Shown here piece after piece: positions 44,487-61,115 of a stretch of DNA of 64,000 bases. Source of the stretch: Candidatus Omnitrophota bacterium (GTDB taxonomy: Bacteria; Omnitrophota; Gorgyraeia; Gygaellales; Profunditerraquicolaceae); assembly GCA_003598025.1 (NCBI GenBank), contig QZKH01000003.1, positions 375,221-439,220 on the forward strand, given 5' to 3'. The position numbers and the translations under genes were made by a program. The notes under the pieces are model-generated. The model did not search any database, was not told where the DNA came from, and worked only from the letters and a program-made list of their open reading frames with translations. How positions within the stretch are numbered: position 1 is the first letter of the stretch; the number at the start of each line of letters is the position of its first letter.

Positions 44487-46066
44487 TTTGTCCCCTCTTC
44501 ATAGCAAGTCTTCCACGGCTCATTCAGCTCGAACTTCACGATCTCCTGATTCTGGATGTGAATCGACTTGAAGATGATCCGCATAAAGGTTTTGACCAGA
44601 TAATCCAACTGGTGGTCATCCGGCGTGTTCCGCAACCTCAAAAGGAAATCCTGCGTCGCCTTAACAAGGTTTGCGGAATTGCGCTTATCCAGAATCTTGA
44701 GCTGAATCGCCTTGATATCCTGCTTTAGTTTTTTCTCTTCATTACTTAAAAGCTCTGCTCTTTCCTTGTAGAGCGCAAGATTAATCTTATCCTCCGAGAA
44801 AAGCTCGTAAATCCCCCGTTGCTTCTCAATATTTTTCTTAAGATGCGCTTCCTTCTCCTCCAATTGTTCAATGTATAATTGCTCCGGCTCAGAAGCGCTT
44901 AATTTGATCATGTCACCCAACTCCTCGATGACATGGATATTCTTTCGGATGACTTCAATAATATCCCATATCGGCCTATTGAGCGCGTCAGCCGTAACCG
45001 ATTTATTATTGCACTTAATATGCGGAATGCCCTTCGATGAGCAACGATACCACGGCCTGCGCATCTTGGTGCGATGATTAACGGTAGACATAATTCCGCG
45101 ATAATTACCGCCGCATTCATTGCACTTTATGATTCCAGAAAGATGATAAACATTATTTCTAAACCTAACCACGCCATTGGTGCGGTTCCGTTTAAGAAGC
45201 TCTCTTGCCTCGTCAAAATCTTTTTGCGTGATGATCGCCTCGTGGGTATTGAATACTTCAATAATCTTCGAGGGATCGTTATTCACATACTTATACCCTT
45301 TACCTTCGCCGTTCTTAGTTTTCTCTTTTGTGTTGTAGCGGCGACGGTTCCACACCAGCATGCCCAGATAAACTTTGCTCTGCAGAATATTGGAGATGAA
45401 TTTGTTATAAAACCGGCCTCCCTGCCGCGATGGAATCCCGAGAGCGTAATAATGCCCGGCAATCTGCGAAGTGCTTTTGCCGCTGATATACATCGCATAA
45501 ATCTCTTTAACGATCTTTGCTTCCTCCGGATGGACTTCCAGTTTCTTGGCGTCTTTATTATATCTGTAGCCATACGGCGCATACCTCGCGCCCTGCCAGT
45601 GGCCACGCTTAACCCCTACGACCATGCCGGGAAATACGCGCTCAACCAGACGATTGCGTTCAAACTCTGCGCAACTACCAAGCATCTGAATCGCCATCTT
45701 TCCCGCGCTGGACGTAGTATCAAACGGTTCGGTGGCTGATTTATATCCGATACCAAGTGAATCAAACTCCTCAAGCAATCCCAGCAGATCCTTGAGCCGC
45801 CTGCTTAAACGATCTTGTTTGTAGACCAAAACAAGATCAAATTGTTTATTACGCGCGTCAAACAAAAGCCGCTGAAGCGCCGGTCTGTCCATATTCCCGC
45901 CGGAATAGCCATCATCCACATAAACATCCCTGCCTGACATGGTACAAATAACATCCCAGGTGAAATTTTTCGCGTATTGCAAAAGATATGCCCTCTGAAC
46001 CTCCAGCGAAAAGCCTTCCCGCGCCTGATCCTCTGTGCTGACTCTTGTATATAACGCTACTCTCAT
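44387..46066 (-). CDS. Large serine recombinase (integrase)
   Basis: N-terminal resolvase catalytic domain MRVALYTRVSTEDQ with the catalytic Ser, a recombinase domain, a Zn ribbon (CNECGG) and a coiled coil. 559 aa. Confidence 0.85.
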   Translation of the reverse strand: MRVALYTRVSTEDQAREGFSLEVQRAYLLQYAKNFTWDVICTMSGRDVYVDDGYSGGNMDRPALQRLLFDARNKQFDLVLVYKQDRLSRRLKDLLGLLEEFDSLGIGYKSATEPFDTTSSAGKMAIQMLGSCAEFERNRLVERVFPGMVVGVKRGHWQGARYAPYGYRYNKDAKKLEVHPEEAKIVKEIYAMYISGKSTSQIAGHYYALGIPSRQGGRFYNKFISNILQSKVYLGMLVWNRRRYNTKEKTKNGEGKGYKYVNNDPSKIIEVFNTHEAIITQKDFDEARELLKRNRTNGVVRFRNNVYHLSGIIKCNECGGNYRGIMSTVNHRTKMRRPWYRCSSKGIPHIKCNNKSVTADALNRPIWDIIEVIRKNIHVIEELGDMIKLSASEPEQLYIEQLEEKEAHLKKNIEKQRGIYELFSEDKINLALYKERAELLSNEEKKLKQDIKAIQLKILDKRNSANLVKATQDFLLRLRNTPDDHQLDYLVKTFMRIIFKSIHIQNQEIVKFELNEPWKTCYEEGTKWLKMSEKTTNQAIPGAKARRSYECFCAPSDVK

Positions 46067-46067
46067 T

Positions 46068-46838
46068 TTATACCCTTTGCGCCTTACGTAATTCTATGAA
46101 CTCCTCATCGCTAATTTCCTTATTTTCATAAACAGTTTCATCCCGTAATAAATTTTGTCCTTTGACCGTTTCAACACGATGTCCGTAGCCAGTTAAAATA
46201 CAATGTGGGATTATCATTTCCTTAACAAACGGATTTTCCTCAGCAGTCTTCTTTATATATATTTCACCAGGTGACCAGAAATAGATATCTTCTCTTGCGC
46301 CTACCGCAAAAAAATATGTCGTAATATCATAAATTATTTTTAAAGCGCTTAAAGTTTTGGCCTCAATGTCTTCCAGCTTATTAAAATGAATAACTTCGTG
46401 CCGAATATCTTTAAGCTCCATATACTTCACTTTTATCTCATCTGAGATAATTACCTTCCAATCACATAATATGTCTACCGATTTCGACCAATCATCGAAT
46501 GAATCTTTTCTATATATATGCTTGTAGTGTTCACTAGATTTATAATGATCTCGAAGTCGCAGTAAAAGAATATTAAAAATCCTTTCGCCCAAACAACATG
46601 CGGAGGTTAATGCGGGATAATATAAACCATAAATGAAGCAATCCTCTATTTCTTGCAGTAAATCATGATATTCAGTAATTACCCGTAACGAAGGTGGCTT
46701 AAAAGACATATATCTCTCAAATTTTTCATCAAGATTCAAATCGCCGTAACGACTAGCAACATGCTGTTTTATTTCCTGCGGCACAGGAATATTTCTAATG
46801 CAATCAATAAAGAAATTTGTTGCCCTATATCGCTTCAT
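46068..46838 (-). CDS. Uncharacterised 256-aa cargo protein of the element
   Basis: No motif recognised. It lies between the Xis-like gene and the integrase, with a 1-bp gap to the integrase gene. Confidence 0.4.
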   Translation of the reverse strand: MKRYRATNFFIDCIRNIPVPQEIKQHVASRYGDLNLDEKFERYMSFKPPSLRVITEYHDLLQEIEDCFIYGLYYPALTSACCLGERIFNILLLRLRDHYKSSEHYKHIYRKDSFDDWSKSVDILCDWKVIISDEIKVKYMELKDIRHEVIHFNKLEDIEAKTLSALKIIYDITTYFFAVGAREDIYFWSPGEIYIKKTAEENPFVKEMIIPHCILTGYGHRVETVKGQNLLRDETVYENKEISDEEFIELRKAQRV

Positions 46839-46845
46839 CCCTAAA

Positions 46846-47040
46846 TCACCCTTCTTTTAACGTCTCCCGCCACTCTTTAATCTTGGCGATACACTCATCC
46901 GTAAACACCGGCCAGTCTTTATAATCGCGTTTGGGTTTGACCCAGCCTTTGCGGATCCAATTGATCATGGTCTGGCGGTGCACACCCAACATCTTTGCAG
47001 TCTCTGTCATGGTGTAAGTTTTCATATTTGGCATCCTCAA
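46846..47040 (-). CDS. Excisionase/AlpA-like small HTH DNA-binding protein
   Basis: TMTETAKMLGVHRQTMINWIRKGWVKP is a helix-turn-helix of the Xis/MerR-like type. 64 aa. Confidence 0.55.
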   Translation of the reverse strand: MRMPNMKTYTMTETAKMLGVHRQTMINWIRKGWVKPKRDYKDWPVFTDECIAKIKEWRETLKEG

Positions 47041-47073
47041 CTATTGGTGCCCAGTATACCGTAATATACAACC

Positions 47074-47295
47074 TTATACAAGTGGTTTTTTCTCCGCGGA
47101 ATAAATCGTCATAAACATTTTTGCAAGCGTTTCAATCCCCTCAAAGAATGACTTTCGGGCTTCTTGGATTTCGGCACAAGACAAACCGCGGCTTTTAAGC
47201 TTTATCTCTAAAGCCTCCCAGCCCCGCAGGGTAACCGCCTGATCCTTATTTGTGCTTACATCCTTGTCCATTTTTCCCACTGCCCAATAGGACAT
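47074..47295 (-). CDS. Hypothetical small protein (73 aa)
   Basis: ORF only. Its start codon is embedded in the inverted repeat 47290-47326. Confidence 0.3.
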   Translation of the reverse strand: MSYWAVGKMDKDVSTNKDQAVTLRGWEALEIKLKSRGLSCAEIQEARKSFFEGIETLAKMFMTIYSAEKKPLV

Positions 47296-47371
47296 TCGGA
47301 CATCGCAAATGTCCGGTTGTGTCCGGTTTTACTGACATACTGACATCCAAAATGTCAGAGGATGTCAGTCA
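47290..47371. promoter_or_regulatory. Two operator-like composite inverted repeats in the element's regulatory region
   Basis: First: GGACAT-tc-GGACAT-cgcaa-ATGTCC-ggttgt-GTCCGG. Second: CTGACAT-a-CTGACAT-ccaaa-ATGTCAG-agg-ATGTCAG. Both have tandem direct half-sites mirrored. Confidence 0.45.
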
Positions 47372-47715
47372 AAACGCCATCCAAAACCCATGAAATCCCC
47401 CAAATTTGACCTTTTTCCCTCAAAAAACGCCTATTTCAGCAACTTTTGACCCGATTTTAACGTTCTCCCGATAACCCCATATGACATGACATCGCTTTTT
47501 TAAAATTTTGTATCACTGACAAACTGCGCCTCGCCCGACCCGCGGCCGACACCTCCTTGGAAGGACCCGTGAACCGGCCTTAAGCTACCAGTGACAACAA
47601 TGACATTTTTTCTCATGGTTATCTTTTTACTTCCCGCACTCAATCCTCCTGCTCCTTACTCCCAACCTACGAACACAATTAATGAAAATTTCTGTCATAA
47701 TCGTCATAGCTGTCA

Positions 47716-49845
47716 TTAGAATGGCCGCTCCGAATAATCAACCTCACCCTCCTTGCGGATGCGTATGCCGTCCCATCGACGCGATGCGCCACACCGCCCT
47801 CTATTGATAACGGTATATTGACGCAAGATCTCTCGGCCAAACATGATCTTGCTAAGCGGACGGTATTCGCTCTCAAGGCACCAGTCCCGGTAAGCCACAT
47901 ACAGGGCGTCATAGCTTACGTCTGCCTGAGCATCCAAAATGCACTGCTCCTCAACGAAAATAATGACGTTATTGTTCTCCTTGCGATAGGCGTCCTTCAC
48001 GGTCTGCATCGATGCGCTCTCCTCGAAATACCCGCGTTTTCGTAAACGCGTAAGGCCGTTAAGAGACCACAAGAAAATACCGTCCAATTCACTGGCCACG
48101 ATCTTGTGCTTTAACTTGGGATCACGTTCCTCTATGGAAAACTGCCGGTTAAAAGGAAGAATCAAAAGACGCCGGTAATACCCTTCGGTCTTATCCCCCA
48201 CGCGCGGCATGTTATTAGTTGAGAAAAGAAGCTTGCAGTAAGGTTTGAACTGAAACGGCTGGCCGTATTTTTCGTCAGCGGAGATCGTATCGCCGGTCAC
48301 GATCGCCTTGAACATGTTGTCATAGACATTTGTCTTGGCATTGGTTTCAAGGCTGATATTGACCAGTTTGTCCCGAAGCCGGGCGATGTAATGGGAATCG
48401 TTAAACTTCTCAAGCGGAATGGATGAGCAATTATCCTTGCCGATAAGCTCCTCGAGTACATACAAAACAACGCTCTTGCCGTTGGCCCCCTCGCCAAACA
48501 AAAAGAGCGCCTTTTCATAATCATTGTCTCGGGTGAGGCAATAGCCGAAATACTCCTGCAAAAGCATAATCCGGGCCGCGTCGCTTTCGAATATCTGATC
48601 AAGACTCTTCTGCCACAACAAACACTCGGCGTTCTCGCGATATGTCACATTAAGCTGGTTGATGGAATAGACGTCCGCCGAATGCGGCAAGAGCTTCATC
48701 TTGTCGATGTCATAAAGCCCGTTTTTGACATTAAAGAGCGTGATGCCATTAATGATGTCCGGCTTGATGAAAGTCTCGGTCTTAAGAGCAACCAGAACAT
48801 TGCGAAGCTTGCTCGCCGAAAACCCGGCCCCGCACGCATCCTTGATCCACTTCTGAACCTCCTCGATAAAGAGCGGCCGGTAACATCCGCCTTTATATTC
48901 GTAATAGGTGTCAGCGAAGTTGATTAGCCGATGATGTTTGAGGATTTCGTCAGCGACCTCATTGGCATTAACCTTTCTGGCTATCAGCAGGCTTGGTCGC
49001 GATGGCGTATAAACCTCACGACAATCATTCACCGCCTTTTCGATAACCGACTGACCATAAGTCCGGCCATCTCCGAAATGCTTTTCATCCCACTTGGGCC
49101 GCATAAGGCCGGACTGCCGGAATAACGCATCCATCTGCCCGGAGTCTTTGCCTGTCCAAAACGCCAGCTTATTGCAGAGTGCCAGATCCGCTTCACTTTG
49201 AGAGGGATAATCATTCTGCCATTGGCCGGAATAAAGCCGCTGAAATCTCTCCGCGTCTTTGCTCTTGGCGATTAAGGAAAGGATCTCGTTCGCGGGAGCT
49301 TTATCTACAAACCGACCGAATATGTCTTTAAGCGCATCGGTACATTCTTTCAGTTCAGCCGGATAGTTTTCAAGGCGGTTGCCGGTAACGGTAAAGAATC
49401 GGCCCTTTGTATAAATCTCCAAGCCGATCTTTGAAATCTTGCAGGCCCGGGCAATCTTGCCCTTACAAAGAATATGAATACCGGTGCCGCTTGGCGAATA
49501 CTCGGAATAGGAATTTAGCGCCTTGAGAATCTCAACCGCATAAGGCACGATGGCTCCATCTTTGACGCAATGATCGATATCCACGCCCACATATGGTGGC
49601 TGGAATACAAAGCCTACTCCCGCATACCCGCGCTGAAGCGCAAGATCGCTTGCGGTCGTATAATCCGTCCATGTGCTTGGATCGTTTGTTTTGGCAGGAC
49701 GTCCGCTCAGGACGTTCATCGGGACCTTGTCGGTGCGGTCTTTATTGCGCCTAAGCTCGTACCCAACCCAACAAGACAATTTGAGCAGTTCCTGAGGAAT
49801 AACCTCTTCCATCGTTCTCTTCTCTTTTCTTCTCTCGTCTTCCAT
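47716..49845 (-). CDS. Primase-helicase with an N-terminal prim-pol/bifunctional primase domain and a C-terminal P4-family/D5-like SF3 helicase
   Basis: The N-terminus YAGVGFVF..DIDH..SPSGTGIHIL is a primase-polymerase fold. The C-terminal Walker A GEGANGKS places it in the P4 alpha/D5 family. 709 aa. Confidence 0.8.
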   Translation of the reverse strand: MEDERRKEKRTMEEVIPQELLKLSCWVGYELRRNKDRTDKVPMNVLSGRPAKTNDPSTWTDYTTASDLALQRGYAGVGFVFQPPYVGVDIDHCVKDGAIVPYAVEILKALNSYSEYSPSGTGIHILCKGKIARACKISKIGLEIYTKGRFFTVTGNRLENYPAELKECTDALKDIFGRFVDKAPANEILSLIAKSKDAERFQRLYSGQWQNDYPSQSEADLALCNKLAFWTGKDSGQMDALFRQSGLMRPKWDEKHFGDGRTYGQSVIEKAVNDCREVYTPSRPSLLIARKVNANEVADEILKHHRLINFADTYYEYKGGCYRPLFIEEVQKWIKDACGAGFSASKLRNVLVALKTETFIKPDIINGITLFNVKNGLYDIDKMKLLPHSADVYSINQLNVTYRENAECLLWQKSLDQIFESDAARIMLLQEYFGYCLTRDNDYEKALFLFGEGANGKSVVLYVLEELIGKDNCSSIPLEKFNDSHYIARLRDKLVNISLETNAKTNVYDNMFKAIVTGDTISADEKYGQPFQFKPYCKLLFSTNNMPRVGDKTEGYYRRLLILPFNRQFSIEERDPKLKHKIVASELDGIFLWSLNGLTRLRKRGYFEESASMQTVKDAYRKENNNVIIFVEEQCILDAQADVSYDALYVAYRDWCLESEYRPLSKIMFGREILRQYTVINRGRCGASRRWDGIRIRKEGEVDYSERPF

Positions 49846-49847
49846 CG

Positions 49848-50078
49848 TTACACTCCGTTTTGAAATAGATAATCTTTAACCCTTCGGTAACAATCAAACA
49901 GCTTGCGCGCCTCTGAATCGGCATAAAAGTCCTCGCAGGCCTTATGAACAGCCGGGATGTCGTCAAACAAGACCCGCTTAAGCCTCCCCGAACCTTCAAT
50001 ACCCCGCATGGCAAACCCGCAATAAAGTAAATACGTAGCCAAATAGAGATTCCCTGCCTCAAAATGCTTGTTTTTCAT
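49848..50078 (-). CDS. Hypothetical small protein (76 aa) upstream of the primase gene
   Basis: ORF in operon position, 2-bp gap to the primase start. The ORF track also lists an alternative overlapping 103-aa ORF. Confidence 0.3.
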   Translation of the reverse strand: MKNKHFEAGNLYLATYLLYCGFAMRGIEGSGRLKRVLFDDIPAVHKACEDFYADSEARKLFDCYRRVKDYLFQNGV

Positions 50079-50611: not shown

Positions 50612-51037
50612 TTATATTGACTTAATCCACTCTTTGATTTTTACTTCTATCTGATCTCTGACCTCTTTTGTTTTCTTCAGCTTCTCTTCCGGCGATCCAG
50701 TAAAAGCGGATGGGTCCGGGAATCCCCAGTGAAGTTTTTGCGCAATGCCCGGGAATATCGGGCACCTCTCCGATTGCGATTCATCGCAGACGGTAACCAC
50801 ATAATTGTAGAGTTTGCCTTGCTTATAAAAATCAAACACACTCTTGGTTTTATTCTGCGAAATATCGATCCCGGCGTCTTTCATCGCCTCGACTACAACG
50901 GGATTGAGCTTGCCCGGCTCAAGGCCTGCGCTCTCCACCTCAAAACGATCGCCTGCATATTTCTTCAAGAATGCCTCTGCCATCTGCGAGCGCGCAGAGT
51001 TGTGAATACATACAAACAAAACCTTTTTCTTATCCAT
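50612..51037 (-). CDS. arsC: Arsenate reductase, LMW-PTPase family (thioredoxin-coupled)
   Basis: P-loop CIHNSARS (CX5R) and downstream Cys residues. 141 aa. Confidence 0.8.
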
Positions 51038-52130
51038 GGCTACCGCCCGATAATTTAAACCAATTTTGGGTTCTCAAACAAACCTTAACCAGCATCAGCA
51101 TCACCGGCACTTCGATAAGGACTCCTACAACCGTTGCCAGTGACGCTCCGGATGAAAGTCCGAAAAGAATTGTCGAAGTGGCGATAGCCACCTCAAAGTG
51201 ATTGCTCGCCCCTACCAACGCCGACGGTGCCGCATCCCGATACGACAGCTTCAACCATTTTGCCAAAGCATATGTTATGGCGAAAATAAGGCAGGTTTGA
51301 ATGAAAAGCGGTATCGCTATAAGAAAAATTATTTGCGGCTGGTTAATGATCAACTCCCCCTTAAAAGAAAACAACAAAACCAGCGTCAATAGCAATGCGC
51401 ATATCGAAACCGGCGTCAGATAATGCAGGAATTTCTCCTCAAACCACTTGAATCCTTTCTTGGCGATCAGCAATTTTCTTGAGTAATAGCCCAGGAGTAG
51501 CGGTAACCCGACATAGATCACCACTGACAATACGATTGTCTGCCACGGAATAGGCATTTTATTCACACCCAAGAGCCATCCACCAAGCGGCGCATACAGA
51601 AACAGCATTGTGAGGGAATTGATAGCTACCATAACAAGCGTGTGGCCGTCGTTTCCTCTAGCCAAATGCCCCCAGATCAGAACCATGGCCGTGCATGGCG
51701 CTATGCCTAACAAAATGCATCCTGCGATATACGACCGAAACAATTCGACCTGCGCCCCGCCTTTAACAATCTCCATCCCCGGAAGCCACCCTTTAAACAA
51801 TACCCCAAGGAAAAGCCATGCGATCGCAAGCATCGTAAACGGTTTTATGCACCAGTTCACAACTAAAGTCAGAATAACCGGCTTAGGCGCCTTTCCTGCT
51901 TTAATGACCTCCGCAAAATCAATCTTGACCATGATCGGGTACATCATGAAGAATAGGCAGATTGCGATAGGAATAGACACTTGATAAATCGAGATCTGAT
52001 CCAACGCCACCGCCACCTGCGGAAACAACTTGCCCAAAGCGATCCCAATTCCGATACAAAGCACTACCCATCCAGTGAGATACTTCTCGAAAAAGCTTAA
52101 TTTTCGTTCCTCATGAATAACGTGTTCCAT
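51030..52130 (-). CDS. acr3: Arsenite efflux transporter ACR3
   Basis: ACR3/ArsB-type membrane protein. Ten predicted TM helices. 366 aa. Confidence 0.8.
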
Positions 52131-52139
52131 CCGCCCTCC

Positions 52140-52826
52140 TTAAAATAACCGCAGGATATAAATTCCTGTGTAATAAAGACCGACAAGAATAAAAATCACC
52201 CCGGTAATTCTACGGGTAAAAAATTCCAGCTTCGTGATCTTATTAAACCAATGGCTCATTGAAGTCACGCCCAATGCGATAGCGACAGCGAACACCAGCA
52301 CCGGAAGTCCTGTCCCTATCCCATAAATAAACGGCAATAGCGTCCCTGCTTTGCTATTAAGCGCTAATGGTATCAAACTGCCGAAGAATAACGCCGCTGA
52401 AACCGGACAAAACGCTAAAGCGAATATCAATCCCAAAAGAAAAGCGCCGGGAGCTCCGGACTCAACAAGTTTATTGTGATGTTTTTGAGACAATGCCACA
52501 CCGGGCAATTTTATCGTGATCACTTCAAGTAAAAATAATCCGGTGATTATCAAGAGAGGCCCTAAGGCCTTGACCATGTATTTCTGCAAAAACTGCGCCA
52601 CCTGCGGAACACTTAAAAGCGAACTGATAATGATCCAGCCAAGCACTGCATACGCCGCCATCCTGCCGAGCGTATAAGCCAGTCCTGAAATGAATACCAT
52701 AACCGGATGCGCAATTTTCTTCGAGAGAAAAGACACCGCCGCGATGTTTGTCGCCAAGGGACAAGGACTGATTGACGTTAATATCCCCAGCCACAGCGCA
52801 GACCCCAAAGCGATCAATAGCTCCAT
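52140..52826 (-). CDS. ccdA: CcdA/DsbD-family thiol-disulfide electron transporter
   Basis: Six TM helices with conserved Cys in TM1 (ISPCP) and TM4 (AFCP). Confidence 0.65.
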   Translation of the reverse strand: MELLIALGSALWLGILTSISPCPLATNIAAVSFLSKKIAHPVMVFISGLAYTLGRMAAYAVLGWIIISSLLSVPQVAQFLQKYMVKALGPLLIITGLFLLEVITIKLPGVALSQKHHNKLVESGAPGAFLLGLIFALAFCPVSAALFFGSLIPLALNSKAGTLLPFIYGIGTGLPVLVFAVAIALGVTSMSHWFNKITKLEFFTRRITGVIFILVGLYYTGIYILRLF

Positions 52827-53245
52827 TATTGCGCGTCCTTCATAAATGCGTTTACCTCACCAGTCACGTAATCCATAAACTTTTGCTTATTGCGGGCAAG
52901 CTCCCAAATCTTGTCGAGATTTTTTGACTTTACTTCCTTGCCGTCCTTGACCAGAGAAAGAATGAGCGTTTTCGTATACAGCTTATAGTCATTTACGAAA
53001 TGTTCGTTGCCCTTCTCCTCGACATTAACCGCCTTAAACTCAAGCCCGCCGGAAGCAAGGGCATCCTTAAAGTTTGCATCAATCGCTTCTCTTGAGTATT
53101 TCTCCATTGCGGTGCATGTAGGACACCGAAACGATCCATGAAAATAATACGCTATGACTTTCGCCTGCGGGCTTGATTGCGCTAAAGCGAAAGACCCGGC
53201 ACTAAGTGCCGCAACAACCGCAAGAACCTGAATTATTCTTTTCAC
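52826..53245 (-). CDS. Exported thioredoxin-like protein (CPTC). The start is re-set to GTG at 53245 behind an AGGAGG SD. The ORF-track start is 53278.
   Basis: After re-setting the start the signal peptide is MKRIIQVLAVVAALSAGSFALAQ. CPTC redox motif. Confidence 0.45.
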   Translation of the reverse strand: MKRIIQVLAVVAALSAGSFALAQSSPQAKVIAYYFHGSFRCPTCTAMEKYSREAIDANFKDALASGGLEFKAVNVEEKGNEHFVNDYKLYTKTLILSLVKDGKEVKSKNLDKIWELARNKQKFMDYVTGEVNAFMKDAQ

Positions 53246-53483
53246 ATCCGCCTCCTGAAAGGATTGTTTTGATCTCATTCTTACTTAAGACTTTCCCGGA
53301 TGAAACCACCTTGCCGTCAATGGCCAGCCCGGGCGTCATCATGACACCGTATTCGGTGATCTTGTCGATATCCGTCACCTTACCGATCTCAGCTTGAATA
53401 TTTAATTCTTTCACAGCCGCCTCAGCATTCGCCGTAAGCTGTTTGCATTTAGGACAACCGACACCTAATATCTCAATTTTCAT
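53202..53483 (-). CDS. Small thioredoxin-fold 'redox-active disulfide protein 2'-like protein with a Cys-rich C-terminal tail (start trimmed to MKIEILG)
   Basis: MKIEILGVGCPKCKQL matches the Thioredoxin_3/TIGR00412 style. The C-terminus is GGGCEKNNSGSCGCCGT. Confidence 0.55.
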   Translation of the reverse strand: MKIEILGVGCPKCKQLTANAEAAVKELNIQAEIGKVTDIDKITEYGVMMTPGLAIDGKVVSSGKVLSKNEIKTILSGGGCEKNNSGSCGCCGT

Positions 53484-53496
53484 TTTAAGCCTCCAA

Positions 53497-54279
53497 TTAT
53501 TTTTTAACTGCCGCAACCTTTACGCTAGCTATTGCATCTTGGGCGGCATCAAGATTATCAAACATAGCGTCTACTGGATAACTTGACTCGCTTATAACCT
53601 TGACGTCCTTAAATCCCGCTTGTTTAATAAAACCCAGATATTCCTCTTTTTTAATGGCTCCGGCAAGGCATCCCACATACGCCTCAACAGAATCTTTGAT
53701 TTTTTTCGGCAGATCTTTCGCCAATACCAAGTCCGAAACCATCAGCCTACCGCCTGTTCTTAAAACCCTATAAGCCTCCTTGAAAACCGCTTCTTTATCA
53801 GGCGAAAGGTTAATGACACAGTTTGAAATAATAACGTCAATGGAATTGTCCTCAACGGGTAATTTCTCAATCTCACCTAAACGAAATTCAATATTGGAAT
53901 ACTTACCCTTCTTAGCATTCTCATTCGCTTTAGAGACCATCTCGGGTGTCATATCAACGCCAATAACCCTGCCGGTCTTGCCAACTCGTTGTGCTGATAA
54001 GAAAGCGTCGAATCCCGCACCGCTCCCCAGATCAAGCACCACATCCCCTTCTTTTAACGAGGCCAGAGCAACTGGATTCCCACACCCAAAGCCTAAATTC
54101 GCCCCTTCGGGTACAGCGTTCATTTCAGATTCGCTATAGCCTACCTTTTTGCTGATGTCTTCCGCCTGTGTTACGCCGCCACAGCATGAACTTGATGAAC
54201 AGCATGATTTTTTCTGCGACAACGCTTTTGTATAGCCTTCTCTGACAATCTTTTTAATTTTATCCGCTTCGTTTCTCAT
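53497..54279 (-). CDS. arsM: Arsenite S-adenosylmethionine methyltransferase
   Basis: Class I SAM methyltransferase fold (VLDLGSGAG) with Cys clusters CCSSSSCC and GCGNP typical of ArsM. Confidence 0.8.
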   Translation of the reverse strand: MRNEADKIKKIVREGYTKALSQKKSCCSSSSCCGGVTQAEDISKKVGYSESEMNAVPEGANLGFGCGNPVALASLKEGDVVLDLGSGAGFDAFLSAQRVGKTGRVIGVDMTPEMVSKANENAKKGKYSNIEFRLGEIEKLPVEDNSIDVIISNCVINLSPDKEAVFKEAYRVLRTGGRLMVSDLVLAKDLPKKIKDSVEAYVGCLAGAIKKEEYLGFIKQAGFKDVKVISESSYPVDAMFDNLDAAQDAIASVKVAAVKK

Positions 54280-54280
54280 T

Positions 54281-54445
54281 TTATATCCCTTCCCTCCTCA
54301 TTTTCGAGGCGTTCTCTTTATCAACTTGCTTCTTGATCACTTCTTTGACAAAATCCAAGGCGCCATCTTTATCCCTGTCGATTACGATTCGCTCAACTCT
54401 AAGCAAATCATCCTCAGTAAGATTGATGGTCTTTTTAATTATCAT
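54281..54445 (-). CDS. Candidate small ORF (54 aa). Its start overlaps the arsP stop (ATGA) and it ends 1 nt before the arsM ATG.
   Basis: MIIKKTINLTEDDLLRVERIVIDRDKDGALDFVKEVIKKQVDKENASKMRREGI is charged and helical. It is below the ORF-track length cutoff. Confidence 0.3.
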   Translation of the reverse strand: MIIKKTINLTEDDLLRVERIVIDRDKDGALDFVKEVIKKQVDKENASKMRREGI

Positions 54446-55647
54446 TTAACCACCGCTCCAAAAATCATACCACTGATAGTTGCCATGACCACAACTAAAG
54501 CCACATACACTGCTGTTTTTTTGGTTCCCATGATGCTCCGAAGCACAAGCATGCTCGGCAAGCTCAAAGCAGGCCCGGCCAAGAGAAGCGCCAAAGCAGG
54601 CCCTTTACCCATTCCTGAGTTCATCAATCCCTGTAATATAGGCACTTCTGTAAGCGTGGCGAAATACATAAATGCCGCCACAATTGATGAGAAGAAATTC
54701 GCCCATAACGAATTGCCGCCAACAAGCATGGTCACATATCGTGAAGGGATAACTCCCTCATGTCCTACCCTACCAAGCAGAAAACCTGAAACTAAAACTC
54801 CTCCTAAAAGAAGCGGCAATATCTGAAGCGCAAAACCCCATGTCGCTCCAGTCCATTCTCTTAACTCATCCCTTTTGAACCACTTGAAGAGCATAATCGC
54901 TAAGCTCATAAAAGATAATCCAGCGATCCACCATTTATACTGATAAATTATTGACCAAATACCATGATCACCCTCAAGCGGCTTCCCCCAGTTAGCAAAC
55001 ACCAAAAAAGCTACCATTGAGGCGAAATATAAAACGGTTTTACCTAAGGAGCGGGTTTCTTTTAACTCTCCAACATTGAAGTCCCCATTGGCGTGACGAG
55101 CCCTTTCTTCTTTTAAAAAGATGAGATGCATTAATAGTCCGATGACAACACTAAATACCACCGCTCCAATAGCTCGTGCCAACCCTAGCTCCCACCCAAG
55201 GATACGTGCGGTTAGAATGATTGCTAAAACATTTATGGCAGGCCCGGAATATAGAAAAGCGATCGCGGGTCCAAGCCCTGCCCCTCTTTTGTATATGCCT
55301 GAAAATAGCGGTAAAACCGTACAAGAACAAACAGCGAGAATTGTTCCCGACACAGAAGCGACACTATAAGAAAGGAATTTATTCGCCTTAGCCCCGAAAT
55401 ACTTCATCACGGACGCTTGGCTGACAAAAACAGATATCGCTCCGGCTATAAAGAACGCCGGAACAAGACACAAAAGCACGTGCTCCCGGGCGTACCATTT
55501 AACAAGAGCCAGAGCCTCAAAGACAGCATTGGTAAAACGAAGATTTTCTACCGGCAGGTAAAAACAGCCTAAGAATATGGCGGCAATATAAAGAAACTTC
55601 TTCCACTCTTTCATTTCTTGACCGTCCTCCCTCCAATAGTACAGCAA
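54442..55647 (-). CDS. arsP: Permease of the DUF318/YraQ type, ArsP-like organoarsenical efflux permease
   Basis: Multi-TM protein with a conserved CSC in a TM helix (ILAVCSCTVLP, like the TPFcSCS motif). It sits in an ars operon next to arsM. Confidence 0.55.
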   Translation of the reverse strand: MLYYWREDGQEMKEWKKFLYIAAIFLGCFYLPVENLRFTNAVFEALALVKWYAREHVLLCLVPAFFIAGAISVFVSQASVMKYFGAKANKFLSYSVASVSGTILAVCSCTVLPLFSGIYKRGAGLGPAIAFLYSGPAINVLAIILTARILGWELGLARAIGAVVFSVVIGLLMHLIFLKEERARHANGDFNVGELKETRSLGKTVLYFASMVAFLVFANWGKPLEGDHGIWSIIYQYKWWIAGLSFMSLAIMLFKWFKRDELREWTGATWGFALQILPLLLGGVLVSGFLLGRVGHEGVIPSRYVTMLVGGNSLWANFFSSIVAAFMYFATLTEVPILQGLMNSGMGKGPALALLLAGPALSLPSMLVLRSIMGTKKTAVYVALVVVMATISGMIFGAVVK

Positions 55648-55919
55648 CCGCCTTCAATACGGATCGCCTTAACATTCACCAGCGCGTCTGTGACTTTTTT
55701 GCAGGCTGATGCAACAATCCGCGAAAATGTCGGCCGGGATATCTTCATAAGTTTTGCCGCATCCCTCTGCTTCATCGCTTCCAAGCAGGCCAGCCGCATC
55801 GCCTCAAATTCATCGATGCTTAAAACAACACCTTCGAGTTTATTCAAAGGCTTGCATTTTGGCCGGAAACATCTCTCCCCCGGCAAACATTTAACCCATC
55901 TTGTTTTCTTTGGACGCAT
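55611..55919 (-). CDS. DUF134 (UPF0251) predicted DNA-binding protein, Cys-rich
   Basis: MRPKKTRWV..P....FKP......LEGVVLSIDEFEAMRL..LE...Q.DAA..M.ISRPTFSRI is the DUF134 signature. It ends with a vicinal Cys pair (EGGCCTIGG). Confidence 0.6.
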   Translation of the reverse strand: MRPKKTRWVKCLPGERCFRPKCKPLNKLEGVVLSIDEFEAMRLACLEAMKQRDAAKLMKISRPTFSRIVASACKKVTDALVNVKAIRIEGGCCTIGGRTVKK

Positions 55920-55933
55920 AAATAGACCTTTCG

Positions 55934-55953
55934 GTTATGAACATTGGTTCATA
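55934..55953. promoter_or_regulatory. Perfect 8-4-8 palindrome TTATGAAC-attg-GTTCATAA, 15 nt upstream of the DUF134 start
   Basis: Seen in the sequence. It is a candidate operator of the ars operon. Confidence 0.35.
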
Positions 55954-56021
55954 ACAATTTTAACACAAAGCGGATCAATGTCAATGACAAAACATTCATG
56001 CGGCTACAAAATTGGTAATAA

Positions 56022-58505
56022 TTATTTGGAGGGTTTTGAAGCTGAGGAATTATTGGTATTGGATTTTTGTCTTCTTGACAATCGCTTCTGTCTTGTCTGT
56101 TCATACCATGTCCAATATGATTCAATACCCAGATGCATCTGTTGCGTCGCATCACACAAATTCTGAATTCCATCACGAATATGCCAATTATTGGCAAATG
56201 CTTCGTATGGCGTCCCCTTATCTTTCCAGCAAGAAGGTGGCTCAAAGTCATCAAATAGCTCAATGCCGGTTAGAATTAAAACGGGATTTACCCACTGCTC
56301 GGCTTTTAGATGTTTTCTGCCTCGCCTTGCCAAACTTGCAATCAACTTCTTTTCACGATCTTTTAAAGTCTTACGTAAAGTACAGAACGCAATAATAGCA
56401 CCCGGGAATTTATCCGCTATCACCCTCATGCGGCCCACATCTGCTTGAGTAAACTCATTGAAAGATTTACATTCTCCGAAAATAATTAACGGAGTCTTGA
56501 TTTCATCCATGCGGCCTTCCGATAAAAACATTCCAAAATCAGCTTCAAGCGGTTTCTCTTCTTTGGCTTTAAGAATAAATGACGGGATCCAAGTCATTTC
56601 GTTTGATAATCCATGGCCGCCAAAGAACTCTAAGCTAAGAGCGACACAATATCCGCCTTGTGCATAATTTTCGACTGAGAAAGGCCCGATTGTCCTCAAA
56701 TGCCAATTGTTCTCGGATATTGGTCTAACAATAGGAAAATCAAACTTCTCAAGGCATCTTTCGCAGACTACCATGTCAGATAAATCATCCAAGGAGTACC
56801 ATGTTCTCTGAGCACATTCAGGACACTGTAACGTTACTCCCCCTTTAAGAATTTTGTAGCCAAGCAAATTCTGAAGTCGTCTTTCAGCAATCTCGGGTGA
56901 ATTAGCTAGGCTGATTCTTTGCAATAAATCCTGCCATTTTTTCACTGGTACCGTCTTTGCGCGCACCTTCGATTTAATCTCTCCCTCGGCAGAACCTTCA
57001 ACTTCAGTTTCCACTGCGGCATGAGACATATCGTTTAGAAGCTTAACTATTTCTTCATCCTGAAATGCCCTTGCCCCATGTATGCCACCAACAGAGTCAA
57101 TGATCTTTAGCGAAATTCGCCCCGAACCAGAGAGCTCGATATCATAGCCTTGCTCCTTGAACCATGCCTCAAACACTTTCAGACTGCTGGGAATCTCAAA
57201 AAAATGGCTCCATTCATAATGTTCACAAGGAATATTAATGCCTTCATTAGATACCCAAGCCTTATGAAAGCTATGAGCTCCAAACAGATGGTATGCGTCT
57301 TTTAAATTCCTAGGGAGCACGGTCGGGCAATCATATCTTTTATAAAAATCTTTAAGCTTGAGAGTGTTCATCCAGCGAGGTTTTCCACCCCCACCGTAGC
57401 GGTCTACAAAACTTGGAGAAATATCTTTAAATCGCGCATAATCATCGTCCAAAGATATCTCTTCCGACTCTTCTTTCGCTACAATTGAGCAAAGCTCAAC
57501 ATGGTCTTTGTCTTTCGCCCATTCATCCCACATGCGCGGATACCAGTGCTGTAATGAATAAGCGTGATCTCCCGGGGAAGTTAATTTCTTGGAAAAAGCC
57601 TGCATCTCATCCATAGAGGATGATCGTGAGCAAATAAAAGTCGTATGGTGCATCATGTCCTTATTATGTCGGTAAGGCACATAATTATGCTTGATGATTC
57701 CATTGACCAAATCAATATAATGATCCGCATATTGTTTTGGAAGCGGCAACACATCCCTGCCCACTGCTCTTAAATTCCAATAGTCAACGATATCAAGCCA
57801 TGAGGTCGCGTCCATAAAGAATATCGACGCATCCGCCCTCCAGCCACGCGGAGACGCTTTAAGCTCGGCACGTGTTATCCTCATTGGAGAAACGCCTTCA
57901 TTTAAGAAGCATTCGAGAAAATTATTCGGCTTAATGAGCAAATCCTTGGCGTTAAAGCAATGACAATAATTTTTCTTAACATATGCCATTTCTTTCTTAT
58001 CAGGAAAATCGCCAAAACTACAGGCTGACAGCAAGGATATTTCCCTTGACGGCTTTGGACAAAATACTTTGATACGATGCCGCCGCTCAAACTTAAAATC
58101 CTTATCATACAAGTGCCAATATAAGTCGGTCACATCTACACCATACGATATTGGCTCTTCATCTTTACTATTCATAACGTCATCAAAGGACAGGAGTCGC
58201 TCTTTATCGAAAAGTGATCCGGCTATTTTCTGCTTATCTTTTACAACAAGATAATCCGGATCGAATGAATCCAAATACCCCTTAGTGATAGATGAGGCTG
58301 GAGGATGGCGGAATCGACGATCTTCCCAATTAGGTGGCGTTTTCTTGAAGTAAGGAATTATAGGATTATAAACCCCTCCCCACAGACAAGTATTAATCTT
58401 GAACACTTCTCGTAGGGTTCGGTTATCGTCCTTCTTAACCAAAAATGCAAGCCTGATCGGACGCAGTTTTTTATCAATCGTGATTTTCTTATCTTTTATC
58501 GCCAT
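56022..58505 (-). CDS. Uncharacterised 827-aa protein encoded directly downstream of hsdS. No family recognised.
   Basis: A 14-bp gap to hsdS on the same strand. Cys4 Zn ribbon CPEC-x16-CERC (aa 561-584). A PD-(D/E)xK-like D656...E678-C-K680 (ADFG...IIFGECK). Confidence 0.5.
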   Translation of the reverse strand: MAIKDKKITIDKKLRPIRLAFLVKKDDNRTLREVFKINTCLWGGVYNPIIPYFKKTPPNWEDRRFRHPPASSITKGYLDSFDPDYLVVKDKQKIAGSLFDKERLLSFDDVMNSKDEEPISYGVDVTDLYWHLYDKDFKFERRHRIKVFCPKPSREISLLSACSFGDFPDKKEMAYVKKNYCHCFNAKDLLIKPNNFLECFLNEGVSPMRITRAELKASPRGWRADASIFFMDATSWLDIVDYWNLRAVGRDVLPLPKQYADHYIDLVNGIIKHNYVPYRHNKDMMHHTTFICSRSSSMDEMQAFSKKLTSPGDHAYSLQHWYPRMWDEWAKDKDHVELCSIVAKEESEEISLDDDYARFKDISPSFVDRYGGGGKPRWMNTLKLKDFYKRYDCPTVLPRNLKDAYHLFGAHSFHKAWVSNEGINIPCEHYEWSHFFEIPSSLKVFEAWFKEQGYDIELSGSGRISLKIIDSVGGIHGARAFQDEEIVKLLNDMSHAAVETEVEGSAEGEIKSKVRAKTVPVKKWQDLLQRISLANSPEIAERRLQNLLGYKILKGGVTLQCPECAQRTWYSLDDLSDMVVCERCLEKFDFPIVRPISENNWHLRTIGPFSVENYAQGGYCVALSLEFFGGHGLSNEMTWIPSFILKAKEEKPLEADFGMFLSEGRMDEIKTPLIIFGECKSFNEFTQADVGRMRVIADKFPGAIIAFCTLRKTLKDREKKLIASLARRGRKHLKAEQWVNPVLILTGIELFDDFEPPSCWKDKGTPYEAFANNWHIRDGIQNLCDATQQMHLGIESYWTWYEQTRQKRLSRRQKSNTNNSSASKPSK

Positions 58506-58519
58506 ATTCTTTAAAAATC

Positions 58520-59719
58520 CTACCTTACCAACTCCCCGCGAAAGGCTTTAGCTAAAATGGACTGCTCCAGCTTGTCGGTATAACCCTTTGCCTTATTAAA
58601 CTCATTCTCATTCTTTTCAATAAAAGCAAAGGATGATTTGAGCCTCTTTACAATTTCTTCTTGTTCATCGATAGGCGGCAAAGATATCTGTAAGTTTTTA
58701 ACTTCTTCACTGTTAATGTTGTTTACGCCACTTGTTGAACGCGCCGGTAATTCAATCTGCAATCTCATCGCATACGACTGAAATTGATATTGTAAAAATT
58801 CCGGTAAAATCAGCTCTTTATTTACCCTAAGCCGGATCAAATAACCAGCATACGCCATGCTTTCTTCTTTATCGGTAACCAGTGCCGTTCGGCCAACAAG
58901 CGAAACGCTTCCGTTTGAGCGGATTAACAAGATATCACCAGGTTCAAGTTTTAGGCTTTCATACTCTTTCTTATCCAGATCGGCGTATTTCAAATCATCC
59001 AGGTCGATATACCCTTGCACAACGTTCGGAATTCTCAAGACCGGATGCTTCTTTTTCTCTTTGAAGCATTTTTTTGCTGTCCCATATTTCAGATCATTGA
59101 GCACTTCTCCAAGTCTAACTTCCCGCCATTCTTCTTCATCCTCCTTTTTCTTCCACGTCTTGGTCAGCTCGCCGGAGAAGGCCGCGGCAAGGACAGATTG
59201 ACGGAAACGATTCAAGATGACAGGAATTGTGTCGAGGCGGGATTGGGCGTCTTTGACTTTAGGCAACAGTGCCTTTAACTTAGACAAAATTTTCTCTCGT
59301 TCTATCGGAGTAGGTAATGGCATAACTAGCTTATTGATATCACCTACAGTTAGCATCGGTATAGCTCCACCCTTCGTAAGCTCTCTCCAATTAATTGTTT
59401 TGAGCCACAGGCAACAATAATCTGTGAGTGCTTCATCACGTAGCTTTAAAGCGATAGTTGTTTGTGTAGATGCAAAACGATCGTTCTTTGGAATTTTTGG
59501 AAAACCAATAGATCCTCGAGCCGAAACAACAATAGTCCCTTTAGCATGAATTTTCTTTGGTTTTTCCAAAAATCCCCAGGGAGTGTTATCCATGCCTGCA
59601 GAATATACGGGAATCCCGCTCCCGGTGAGGTCTTTTGCTAAAATAGTTTCTCCCATTCGAGCGTCAGCAACTTCACTTAATGGTAATTCGTCCCATCCGT
59701 CTGGTAAATTATTCTCCAT
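58520..59719 (-). CDS. hsdS: Type I restriction-modification specificity subunit
   Basis: Two target-recognition domains separated and flanked by conserved coiled-coil repeats. 399 aa. It overlaps hsdM by 11 nt. Confidence 0.8.
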   Translation of the reverse strand: MENNLPDGWDELPLSEVADARMGETILAKDLTGSGIPVYSAGMDNTPWGFLEKPKKIHAKGTIVVSARGSIGFPKIPKNDRFASTQTTIALKLRDEALTDYCCLWLKTINWRELTKGGAIPMLTVGDINKLVMPLPTPIEREKILSKLKALLPKVKDAQSRLDTIPVILNRFRQSVLAAAFSGELTKTWKKKEDEEEWREVRLGEVLNDLKYGTAKKCFKEKKKHPVLRIPNVVQGYIDLDDLKYADLDKKEYESLKLEPGDILLIRSNGSVSLVGRTALVTDKEESMAYAGYLIRLRVNKELILPEFLQYQFQSYAMRLQIELPARSTSGVNNINSEEVKNLQISLPPIDEQEEIVKRLKSSFAFIEKNENEFNKAKGYTDKLEQSILAKAFRGELVR

Positions 59720-61115
59720 TACTCTCCAGCTCCGCTACGATTTCTTTAAGGCTGTCAACAACCGTTTCCAGCTCTGTAATAGCTTCGGATGCCAAAACCT
59801 GCGGCTCCGGCAAGTCCTCCGGATTATCCAATGACTCATCCTTAAGCCATGTTACATCGAGCTTATAGCCGCGATCCTTGATCTCCTTAATGTTGAACCG
59901 ACGAAAACGTCCATCGACGCCAAGGTCTGTCCTCTTGCTCTGCCCATTAGGATCGGAGCCGTAACACTTCTCAAATTCTTTAAAGTGCTCCCCTGAAAGC
60001 GGCCGATCCTTTTTAGTTATTCCGGGCACGTTGGAGCGACCGTCGAATATCCAGACATTCTCCGTAGGCAATCCCTTCTGGAAGAAAATCACGTTCGCCT
60101 TCACTCCTTGGCTATAGGGCGTAAATGTCCCTCTGGGCAGGCGTAAGATCGTGTGCAGGTTGCAATCCTGTGTCAGAATCTCAATCACCTCTCCGGCCTT
60201 GTCTTCAAAAAGGCAGTTATCCGGTAAAACCATAGCCGCGCGGCCTCCGGGGCGTAGCACATTCACGACGTGCTGAATAAAGTTGAGCTGTTTATTGCTC
60301 GTTGAAATCGTAAAATCATCCCTCTCCGGAGCCTGATTCGCTCCCTTAGTACCGAACGGCGGATTCGTAAGAATACAATCGTATCGCGTACCTTTCATTG
60401 GCTCATAAATAGAATCACCAAGATAAATGTCCGCATGGATTCCGTGTAGGTATAGATTCATCAAAGCAAGTCGGCGCGGCCGGGCAACAAGCTCGGTGCC
60501 GGTGTAAACCTTATTTGCTATCCGTTTAGCATCATCACGCTCAAGACTGCCCTTGGTTTGCTCCATTAGCCACTCATAAGCACAGACCAAAAAGCCCCCA
60601 GTCCCAGCCGCAGGATCATGGATAATGAAGTCCTTTGACTTTCGCGGATCAGGCTTCATGCATTTGACGATTGACTGAATAAGAACACGCGGGGTGAAAT
60701 ATTGTCCGGCTCCCTTCTTGCCTTCCGAAGCAGATTTCTCAAGCAACCCTTCATAAGCGGCCGCTTTAACATCTACATTAAGACTTGTCCATTCGGTTTC
60801 ATCAATCAGGTTAATAAGCTTCTTAAGATTGACCGGATTGGCAAATTTTGAGATCGCTCCAGCATAGATATCCCCAAGCGTTCCTTTTTGTTTGCCAAGG
60901 CCGCGTAAAGCATCCACATAAAAATCAGTTAAATCTGTTCCTGACTTCTCACGCAGGACTGGCCATGAATATTCCTTGGGAATATCCGCACCCTTCTCCT
61001 CTGCCATTTTCAAGAACAGCAAATACGTCAACTGTTCAATATAATCACCGTAATCCACGCCGTCATGGCGTAGCGTGTGACAAAATCCCCATAATTTTCC
61101 GACTACATCGCTCAT
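59709..61115 (-). CDS. hsdM: Type I restriction-modification N6-adenine DNA methyltransferase subunit
   Basis: HsdM N-terminal domain. SAM motif I (HDPAAGTGGFL) and motif IV NPPFG. 468 aa. Confidence 0.9.
   Translation of the reverse strand: MSDVVGKLWGFCHTLRHDGVDYGDYIEQLTYLLFLKMAEEKGADIPKEYSWPVLREKSGTDLTDFYVDALRGLGKQKGTLGDIYAGAISKFANPVNLKKLINLIDETEWTSLNVDVKAAAYEGLLEKSASEGKKGAGQYFTPRVLIQSIVKCMKPDPRKSKDFIIHDPAAGTGGFLVCAYEWLMEQTKGSLERDDAKRIANKVYTGTELVARPRRLALMNLYLHGIHADIYLGDSIYEPMKGTRYDCILTNPPFGTKGANQAPERDDFTISTSNKQLNFIQHVVNVLRPGGRAAMVLPDNCLFEDKAGEVIEILTQDCNLHTILRLPRGTFTPYSQGVKANVIFFQKGLPTENVWIFDGRSNVPGITKKDRPLSGEHFKEFEKCYGSDPNGQSKRTDLGVDGRFRRFNIKEIKDRGYKLDVTWLKDESLDNPEDLPEPQVLASEAITELETVVDSLKEIVAELESNGE

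Follow-up and report, generated by a model that had tools for sequence, protein, structure and literature searches.

Which protein controls the arsenic (ars) operon of an Omnitrophota bacterium when no gene for an ArsR repressor accompanies it? We addressed this question in 64,000 nucleotides of Candidatus Omnitrophota bacterium DNA (contig QZKH01000003.1, positions 375,221 to 439,220), hereafter the window, in which positions are counted from the first letter. It contains a tight operon of nine minus-strand open reading frames (ORFs; 55919-50612), in the order DUF134, arsP-like permease, 54-aa ORF, arsM, arsE, arsF, arsG, acr3 and low-molecular-weight (LMW) arsC. Ars operons are commonly regulated by ArsR, and the known types of As(III) site all lie on its winged-helix scaffold (PMC11868830, published in 2025). 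The findings below suggest that in this operon the first gene, which encodes a small Cys-rich protein of the DUF134/UPF0251 family, is in all probability the autoregulator, acting at a palindrome in its own promoter. We also favour, with moderate confidence, the idea that this protein is a repressor released by trivalent arsenic through cysteines gained in its clade. What would be new is that the autorepressor logic of ArsR is carried out by an unrelated family that previously had no known function.

An initial annotation of this DNA had remarked that the operon lacks an ArsR/SmtB gene, and the same proved true of its surroundings: no ArsR/SmtB-like ORF was detected in the 64-kb window, either by phmmer with three ArsR/SmtB queries or with an iterated ArsR profile (jackhmmer). 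The linkage of DUF134 to ars genes was surveyed in relatives. A one-genome-per-species scan found 322 of these, the best 80 of the 322 were taken, and 87 loci in total were analysed, the ars genes being sought by searching the locus ORFs with the ars proteins of the window. The closest DUF134 homologues (73-96% identity) are encoded by Candidatus Omnitrophota metagenome-assembled genomes and by the complete Velamenicoccus archaeovorus genome. At all 87 clade loci DUF134 is the first gene and is directly followed by ars genes on the same strand; an ArsR-like ORF was found at one of the 87 (L031). A sister clade was obtained by using as query a lineage that keeps C11 and the C-terminal CC pair; its proteins have the same Cys pattern as the main clade and head ars operons in the seven cases out of seven that were looked up. 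Operon content varied widely: besides the long form running from arsP to acr3, as in the window, we observed DUF134-acr3-arsC (in V. archaeovorus and others), DUF134-arsM-acr3(-arsC), DUF134-arsF-arsG(-acr3) and DUF134-arsP-arsC-acr3. The DUF134 gene is the sole constant partner of the ars genes across these variable operons, which is the mark of a dedicated regulator.

This linkage did not extend to the family as a whole. Most DUF134 genes adjoin NifB/NifX-like, MinD/ParA-like or DUF5320-like genes, and a second, ordinary DUF134 paralog located beside a NifX-like gene occurs in the same genomes, so that the ars link belongs to the clade and not to the whole family. A survey of DUF134 neighbours for ars genes therefore gives a positive answer for the Cys-rich clades and a negative one for DUF134 at large.

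The promoter region and first gene of the operon comprise the following features:

55957 to 55984, minus strand: sigma70-like promoter with a -35 element TTGACA (55984-55979), a 16-nt spacer and an extended -10 element TGnTAAAAT (55965-55957); 11/12 matches.
55955 to 55934, no strand assigned: candidate operator, a perfect 9-4-9 palindrome in the sequence, GTTATGAAC-CAAT-GTTCATAAC.
55611 to 55919, minus strand: DUF134/UPF0251 protein of 102 aa; PF02001 (Pfam), 74.9 bits against a cut-off of 27, residues 2-91.

A perfect palindrome 15 nt upstream of the DUF134 start had been reported in the initial annotation; it is real and slightly longer than first described. Beginning 2-3 nt past the -10 box, it extends across the predicted transcription start and leaves 15 nt to the ATG at 55919. 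It is also well conserved: it was found in 73 of the 75 distinct upstream regions of the clade, in many cases as the complete 20-mer TTATGAACATATGTTCATAA. At 58 of 72 related loci it is preceded, at a distance of 30-31 nt, by a TTGAC -35 element, and most loci have their start codon 15-16 nt downstream of it. The palindrome is single-copy in the window. Its core, ATGAAC-N4-GTTCAT, occurs once per locus, always at the promoter position, and was found nowhere else in approximately 1.1 Mb of retrieved locus DNA; since no second copy turned up in this flanking DNA, a global regulon is unlikely.

An inverted repeat just 15 nt from a start codon could instead form a hairpin in the 5'-leader RNA and control translation or stability, and the symmetric double changes seen at three loci (L046, L078 and L081) do preserve complementarity. 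However, because the -10 box ends just before the repeat, transcription should begin within the left arm, and this predicted start favours a DNA operator that would occlude RNA polymerase over an RNA hairpin. Moreover, the arm sequence is nearly invariant over hundreds of species, beyond what pairing demands, and in other family members the box lies between the -35 and -10 elements. With promoter geometry placing the start inside the left arm and no Rfam match in the window, we rejected an RNA element, to which we attach hardly any probability.

The same geometry bears on the direction of control. DUF134 might activate transcription from the palindrome, or both activate and repress it in the manner of MerR, as sigma-region-4-like helix-turn-helix (HTH) domains contact RNA polymerase in many activators. 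The promoter, however, is near consensus (extended -10, 16-17-nt spacer) and thus does not need an activator, and the box is situated either downstream of the -10 element over the predicted start or, at L210, between -35 and -10, both classical repressor positions. Activation is thus improbable in our view, and repression at the palindrome is the reading retained.

To follow the box outside ars loci, a metagenome scan using DNA alone was performed with a variant pattern seen earlier in a few ars loci, TTATGAGC-N4-GYTCATAA, and matched at least 120 contigs. Among the matches listed, a DUF134-family gene starts right beside the box in 71 of 120 contigs. Most of these genes encode proteins of 90-190 aa of the non-ars type, often with zinc-ribbon-like, Gly/Arg-rich or NifX-like extensions at the C-terminus. 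At least 12 more contigs have typical DUF134 neighbours by the box (MinD/ParA-ferredoxin ATPases, DUF5320-like, NifX-like and Mrp-like genes), and the remaining ones look accidental. A pattern of 16 DNA bases is thus enough to single out one small protein family, and DUF134 promoters share the box throughout the family.

General DUF134 genes were observed to be preceded by 20-bp CATATG-centred palindromes reading TTATGAGCATATGCTCATAA, ATTGGCATATGCCAAT or ATTGACATATGTCAAT (L088-L207, L210, L002:2890-3213, L083 and L184), and boxes of the same type precede MinD/ParA-ferredoxin ATPase, DUF5320-like and NifX-like genes, which suggests a family-wide DUF134 regulon. On one contig (L195:2-1352), a DUF134-NifX fusion gene and a divergent ArsR/SmtB-family gene share an intergenic region that carries a TTATGAGCATATGCTCATAA box. 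Plasmids yielded 197 records with DUF134 matches, mostly from Klebsiella and Citrobacter and all below 60% identity. The two that were inspected, Citrobacter pKPC-933d (L211) and a 7-kb Proteus vulgaris plasmid (L212), contain DUF134-NifB/NifX pairs that are not linked to ars genes, an arrangement apparently common on plasmids of enterobacteria; upstream of the enterobacterial plasmid pairs, GCATATGC-type repeats were found.

If DUF134 reads its own box, changes in the box should be matched by changes in the recognition helix. Main-clade proteins have the helix ISRPTFSRI and boxes with the half-site GAAC (TGAAC-N4-GTTCA), versus VHRST(I/V)SRI and the half-site GCAC in the sister clade, where the box is TGCAC-N4-GTGCA at seven of seven loci. 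The only symmetric GCAC boxes of the main clade, at L078 and L081, both accompany a P63S replacement (ISRSTFSRI). Different boxes again, TTGAC-ATAT-GTCAA and TTGGC-ATAT-GCCAA, precede the general-type paralogs encoded in the same genomes. Operator variants therefore track recognition-helix variants in at least two lineages, as expected for a protein that reads its own box. Another candidate specificity residue, His51 for the half-site GAGC, was tried and rejected as a general rule: it is present at 5 of 8 ars-clade loci with GAGC boxes, against none of about 70 with GAAC, but Gln is the usual residue at this position in general DUF134 proteins whose box is GAGC.

These data also bear on whether the palindrome could be the site of another regulator, either LexA or an ArsR/SmtB protein encoded elsewhere, with DUF134 acting as an accessory ars protein such as a chaperone. 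The TGAAC..GTTCA core resembles what we take to be the 12-2-12 sites of ArsR/SmtB proteins and, as GAAC-N4-GTTC, presumably the Cheo box; ArsR genes are also present in some Omnitrophota (L031). Yet neither the window nor 86 of the 87 loci has an ArsR gene, the HTH of DUF134 is bona fide, and no second copy of the box was found in the 1.1 Mb of flanking DNA. Furthermore, the box found by DNA alone adjoins DUF134 genes in non-ars contexts, and its variants track the DUF134 recognition helix. We judged a LexA or ArsR/SmtB site unlikely, because the box (in its main-clade core) stands only before DUF134 genes and follows the DUF134 clades; the explanation as a whole seems to us very improbable. 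Gene order and family membership, together with promoter geometry, conservation and covariation, instead argue strongly that DUF134 would bind the palindrome and regulate its own operon. The initial proposal of a non-ArsR autoregulator acting through the palindrome thus drew strong support from ars linkage, from the conserved promoter palindrome and from helix covariation, and had to be restricted to the Cys-rich clades as regards ars association.

We sought to characterize the protein itself. A library-wide PF02001 search retrieved 2977 cluster representatives. In alignments, the window protein displays the DUF134 motifs, namely the N-terminal arm RPxKxRxV...P....F.P, the HTH 'vSRpTf.Ri' and the C-terminal 'GKAirIEGG'. 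Its AlphaFold2 model (predicted local distance difference test score of 84) comprises two short N-terminal strands, three helices (35-46, 51-57 and 62-81) and three C-terminal strands (b-b-H-H-H-b-b-b). Compared with the Protein Data Bank (PDB) by Foldseek, the modelled HTH core (residues 35-80) superposes on sigma-70 region 4 and on the operator-bound DNA-binding domain of Bacillus subtilis DeoR, with a root-mean-square deviation of 0.6-0.8 A over 40-49 residues and full-length TM-scores below 0.5. The search gave no full-length match in the PDB and no ArsR/SmtB structure among the top 50. A profile search of PDB sequences had DeoR as its sole match (E 2.6e-4, HTH residues 38-75). A solved DUF134 structure was looked for in the PDB and there was none, the matches being confined to the HTH core. 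A Pfam scan of the protein detected neither HTH_5 (PF01022) nor HTH_20 (PF12840), gave weak matches to HTH_29, HTH_23 and PhyR-sigma, and found no SorC domain in its 102 aa. DUF134 is thus a plausible DNA-binding protein, and it does not belong to the ArsR/SmtB family.

The Cys content of the protein was of particular interest. Six or more Cys with a terminal GGCC had been counted initially; there are seven (C11, C17, C22, C45, C73, C92 and C93), and the GGCC is present. Among 75 distinct main-clade members, C11 is conserved in 74, C17 in 74, C22 in 71 and the C92-C93 pair in 74. Where the clade has C11, C17, C22 and CC, the corresponding columns of the wider family hold Phe, Tyr, Gly and Asn-Phe, from which it follows that five Cys were gained, in the N-terminal arm and directly after IEGG; the variable tail of other family members begins right after IEGG, the same point as the CC pair. 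Neighbouring lineages retain just C11 and CC. Another lineage, divergent and carrying FPVCCCF in the N-terminal arm, is found at the head of arsP-arsE(-arsM) clusters (L102:450-773 and L208:7001-7318; proteins P0121-P0125) behind a box reading TTATGAACATATGCTC(A/G)TAA, and its nearest relative lacking the CCC (P0126, L210) sits with NifX and ParA genes. Three-Cys sites with a vicinal pair are established As(III) sensors that arose repeatedly, as in AfArsR (C95/C96/C102) and CgArsR (C15/C16/C55) (PMC11868830). On a 1.1-kb contig, a DUF134 gene of the lineage with C11 and CC only (P0246) is followed by a gene of the MIP/aquaglyceroporin family (L221:26-1001), which may encode an AqpS-type arsenite channel.

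As to the mode of action, we infer repression rather than activation, and likewise the effector and the Cys ligands, in the following way. A DUF134 dimer would bind the 20-22-bp palindrome (G)TTATGAAC-N4-GTTCATAA(C) through its sigma-region-4/DeoR-like HTH, the predicted target duplex in the window being GTTATGAACCAATGTTCATAAC. Since the palindrome lies 2-3 nt past the -10 box and covers the transcription start, bound DUF134 would block RNA polymerase. As(III) and/or methylarsenite (MAs(III)) would then bind the thiolates of C92-C93 and of the N-terminal arm (C11, possibly C17 and C22); MAs(III) is considered because the operon contains arsM and arsP. Arsenic binding would alter the beta-sheet by which both termini are clamped onto the HTH, DUF134 would leave the DNA and the operon would be expressed.

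Several points weigh against this model. Two of the seven Cys are not conserved (C45 in 66 of 75 members, C73 in 21 of 75); some members lack C22, and the neighbouring lineages have neither C17 nor C22. In terms of DNA recognition, one member with S63 (L050) does not have a GCAC box, and the first covariation idea, that of H51 with GAGC, failed across the family. The GAAC-N4-GTTC box resembles, as we presume, the LexA box of Gram-positive bacteria and the ArsR/SmtB 12-2-12 core, and an ArsR may be encoded elsewhere in these genomes, one being found nearby at L031.

The last point concerns the Cys spacing, and it raises a serious alternative: C-x5-C-x4-C together with CC might also provide the ligands for Zn or for an Fe-S cluster. 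DUF134 would then still autoregulate at the palindrome, with its Cys holding Zn or a cluster or forming a thiol-disulfide switch, and the signal would be redox, thiol stress or displacement of the metal or cluster. C11-x5-C17-x4-C22 plus CC would provide four to five ligands. C-terminal CxxC...CPxC ribbons or NifX-like fusions are found in many general DUF134 proteins, whose genes lie beside those of Fe-S-type ATPases, and the family as a whole may therefore bind a metal or cluster; the operon itself encodes several thiol-redox proteins (ArsE, ArsF and ArsG). On the other hand, the neighbouring lineages that keep C11 and CC only are left with a three-ligand set, and the FPVCCCF lineage has three adjacent thiols, which is typical of As(III) rather than cluster sites. 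Minimal operons such as DUF134-acr3-arsC and DUF134-arsM-acr3 also speak against it, arsenicals being their sole known substrates. We therefore regard a Zn, Fe-S or redox signal as unlikely, and retain a repressor that would respond to trivalent arsenic.

Extended to the family, these observations would make DUF134/UPF0251 a large family of one-component autorepressors with clade-specific, CATATG-centred 20-bp palindromes, in which the arm and tail form the sensor and ArsR has been replaced through gain of thiols. We rate this at only slightly better than even. Within this reading, replacement of ArsR in Omnitrophota and neighbouring groups apparently took place at least twice, once in the KC-x5-C-x4-C...GGCC clades and once in the FPVCCCF lineage.

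The genes that DUF134 would control, and the region following the last of them, are as follows:

54442 to 55614, minus strand: ArsP_1-family (arsP-like) permease, 390 aa; PF03773, E 3.6e-77.
54281 to 54445, minus strand: 54-aa ORF between arsP and arsM, MIIKKTINLTEDDLLRVERIVIDRDKDGALDFVKEVIKKQVDKENASKMRREGI; no family match in Pfam or NCBIfam.
53497 to 54279, minus strand: ArsM, As(III) S-adenosylmethionine methyltransferase; NF008823, 362 bits against a cut-off of 263.
53202 to 53483, minus strand: ArsE-family (MTH895/ArsE) small thioredoxin-fold protein with a CPKC motif; TIGR00412, 106 bits against 62, and PF13192.
52826 to 53278, minus strand: ArsF-family exported protein with a signal peptide and a CPTC motif; NF040494, 112 bits against 60.
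52140 to 52826, minus strand: ArsG-family CcdA/DsbD-like membrane protein, SPCP and FCPV motifs retained; NF040495, 285 bits against 200, and PF13386.
51030 to 52130, minus strand: Acr3 arsenite efflux transporter; TIGR00832 equivalog, 410 bits against 282.8.
50612 to 51037, minus strand: probable arsenate reductase ArsC of the LMW protein-tyrosine-phosphatase (thioredoxin-coupled) type; PF01451 LMWPc domain.
50592 to 50573, minus strand: weak 8-bp hairpin without a T-run, 20 nt past the arsC stop; possible terminator.

The nine ORFs lie on the minus strand where they had been placed at the outset, and three details of that description were revised. The hairpin after arsC, then called a terminator, is weak, lacks a T-run and was not called in a terminator scan of the window. 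The arsP start is most likely, judging from the sequence, the ATG at 55614, overlapping the stop codon of DUF134 (ATGA), rather than the TTG at 55647; a 4-nt overlap of the DUF134 stop with the next start recurs in most related loci. The ArsE start is most likely at 53483 (MKIEIL). As for ArsC, it scores 124 bits with the arsC_pI258 model TIGR02691, whose cut-off is 174, and it possesses the CX5R P-loop and two distal Cys. The 54-aa ORF is kept in sequence and in position between arsP and arsM at 14 related loci and at a sister-clade locus (L214), and is therefore a real small gene of these ars operons.

The arsE, arsF and arsG genes are adjacent, each scores above its curated NCBIfam cut-off, and the three co-occur in most related operons. 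An ArsEFG set is known from Shewanella putrefaciens 200 (Chen, Zhang & Rosen 2019, cited in PMC9144182). The combination of a CcdA protein with a periplasmic thioredoxin, singled out initially as notable and as implying a redox relay, is thus not a new set, since it corresponds to these published families; a thiol relay is chemically compatible with the CxxC and PCP motifs. By homology, the module of this anaerobic Omnitrophota bacterium may carry out nitroreduction of roxarsone/nitarsone and efflux of the amino-arsenical. The present module differs from the S. putrefaciens 200 set in having DUF134 instead of ArsR as its proposed controller, and its ArsE has an additional Cys-rich tail. This C-terminal extension, GGGCEKNNSGSCGCCGT (SCGCCGT; 53202-53278, minus strand), which most homologues (77 aa) do not have, overlaps the start of the annotated arsF ORF. 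In some related operons a DGC-domain protein (PF08859) is encoded between arsE and arsF (L002-L006:12680-13111 and equivalents), and at L220 a Thioredoxin_3 protein has a weak match to ArsD.

Directly downstream of arsC, a minus-strand segment (44387-50078) encodes a large serine recombinase (44387-46066), a primase-polymerase/D5-type helicase (47716-49845) and a DUF5659 gene, which suggests that an integrated mobile element adjoins the operon. Directly upstream of the ars promoter lies a gene for an 827-aa protein with no Pfam match (56022-58505, minus strand), and beyond it a complete type I restriction-modification system (HsdS, HsdM and HsdR), the whole stretch occupying 56022-63802 on the minus strand. 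The G+C content of the operon is 45%, compared with 40-42% across most of the window. This composition and the recombinase, primase and restriction-modification flanks are suggestive of a genomic island; no element boundaries and no tRNA were found in the 64-kb window.

In the full-text literature, subscription journals lying outside its scope, DUF134/UPF0251 was not linked to arsenic or to any regulatory function, and nothing was found that joined Omnitrophota, arsenic and ArsR or that bore on DUF5320. To our knowledge, DUF134 is among the oldest domains of unknown function. If our model is correct, arsenite sensing also evolved on an unrelated scaffold, and convergence of As(III) sites extends beyond one family. 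Arsenite sensing would then have been solved convergently by a non-homologous protein, which would offer a new scaffold for biosensors. PF02001/UPF0251, a family with roughly 3000 cluster representatives (at 50% identity) among anaerobic bacteria and archaea as well as copies on plasmids of enterobacteria, would gain its first functional handle. The model supplies testable predictions, namely the operator, the specificity position (residue 63 versus the second base of the half-site) and the candidate ligand residues, all of them accessible with a 22-bp duplex and a protein of 102 aa. The annotation of arsenic genes from uncultured phyla would benefit as well, since a missing arsR might otherwise be taken to mean constitutive expression.

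Compared with known systems, DUF134 shares with ArsR (R773 ArsR, AfArsR, CgArsR and ArArsR) its place as first ars gene, the small size of a proposed dimeric autorepressor and a candidate operator that overlaps the promoter; by analogy with AfArsR and CgArsR, three-Cys sensing that includes a vicinal pair is proposed for it. Unlike ArsR, it would have a sigma-region-4/DeoR-like HTH clamped by N- and C-terminal strands, with neither a wing nor the alpha1-alpha5 fold, and its candidate operator is a 20-bp CATATG-centred palindrome common to the DUF134 family.

With general DUF134 proteins (PF02001) it has in common the domain, the palindrome directly upstream of its own gene, the RPxKxR arm and the C-terminal IEGG. 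The ars clades differ from these relatives in that they have gained C11, C17, C22 and CC and do not carry the zinc-ribbon, NifX or Gly/Arg-rich C-terminal tails. In addition, their half-sites are GAAC or GCAC instead of GAGC, GGC or GAC, and they head ars operons rather than NifX-type clusters. Among proteins of known structure, the SorC/DeoR group (B. subtilis DeoR, PDB 7bhy and 8r7y) has a tri-helical HTH similar in sequence (isRPTfSRi) and structure, and DeoR itself binds a palindromic operator as an oligomer. The likeness to DeoR and sigma-70 is limited to the HTH core, DUF134 having neither the sugar-phosphate-binding SorC domain nor sigma regions 2/3.

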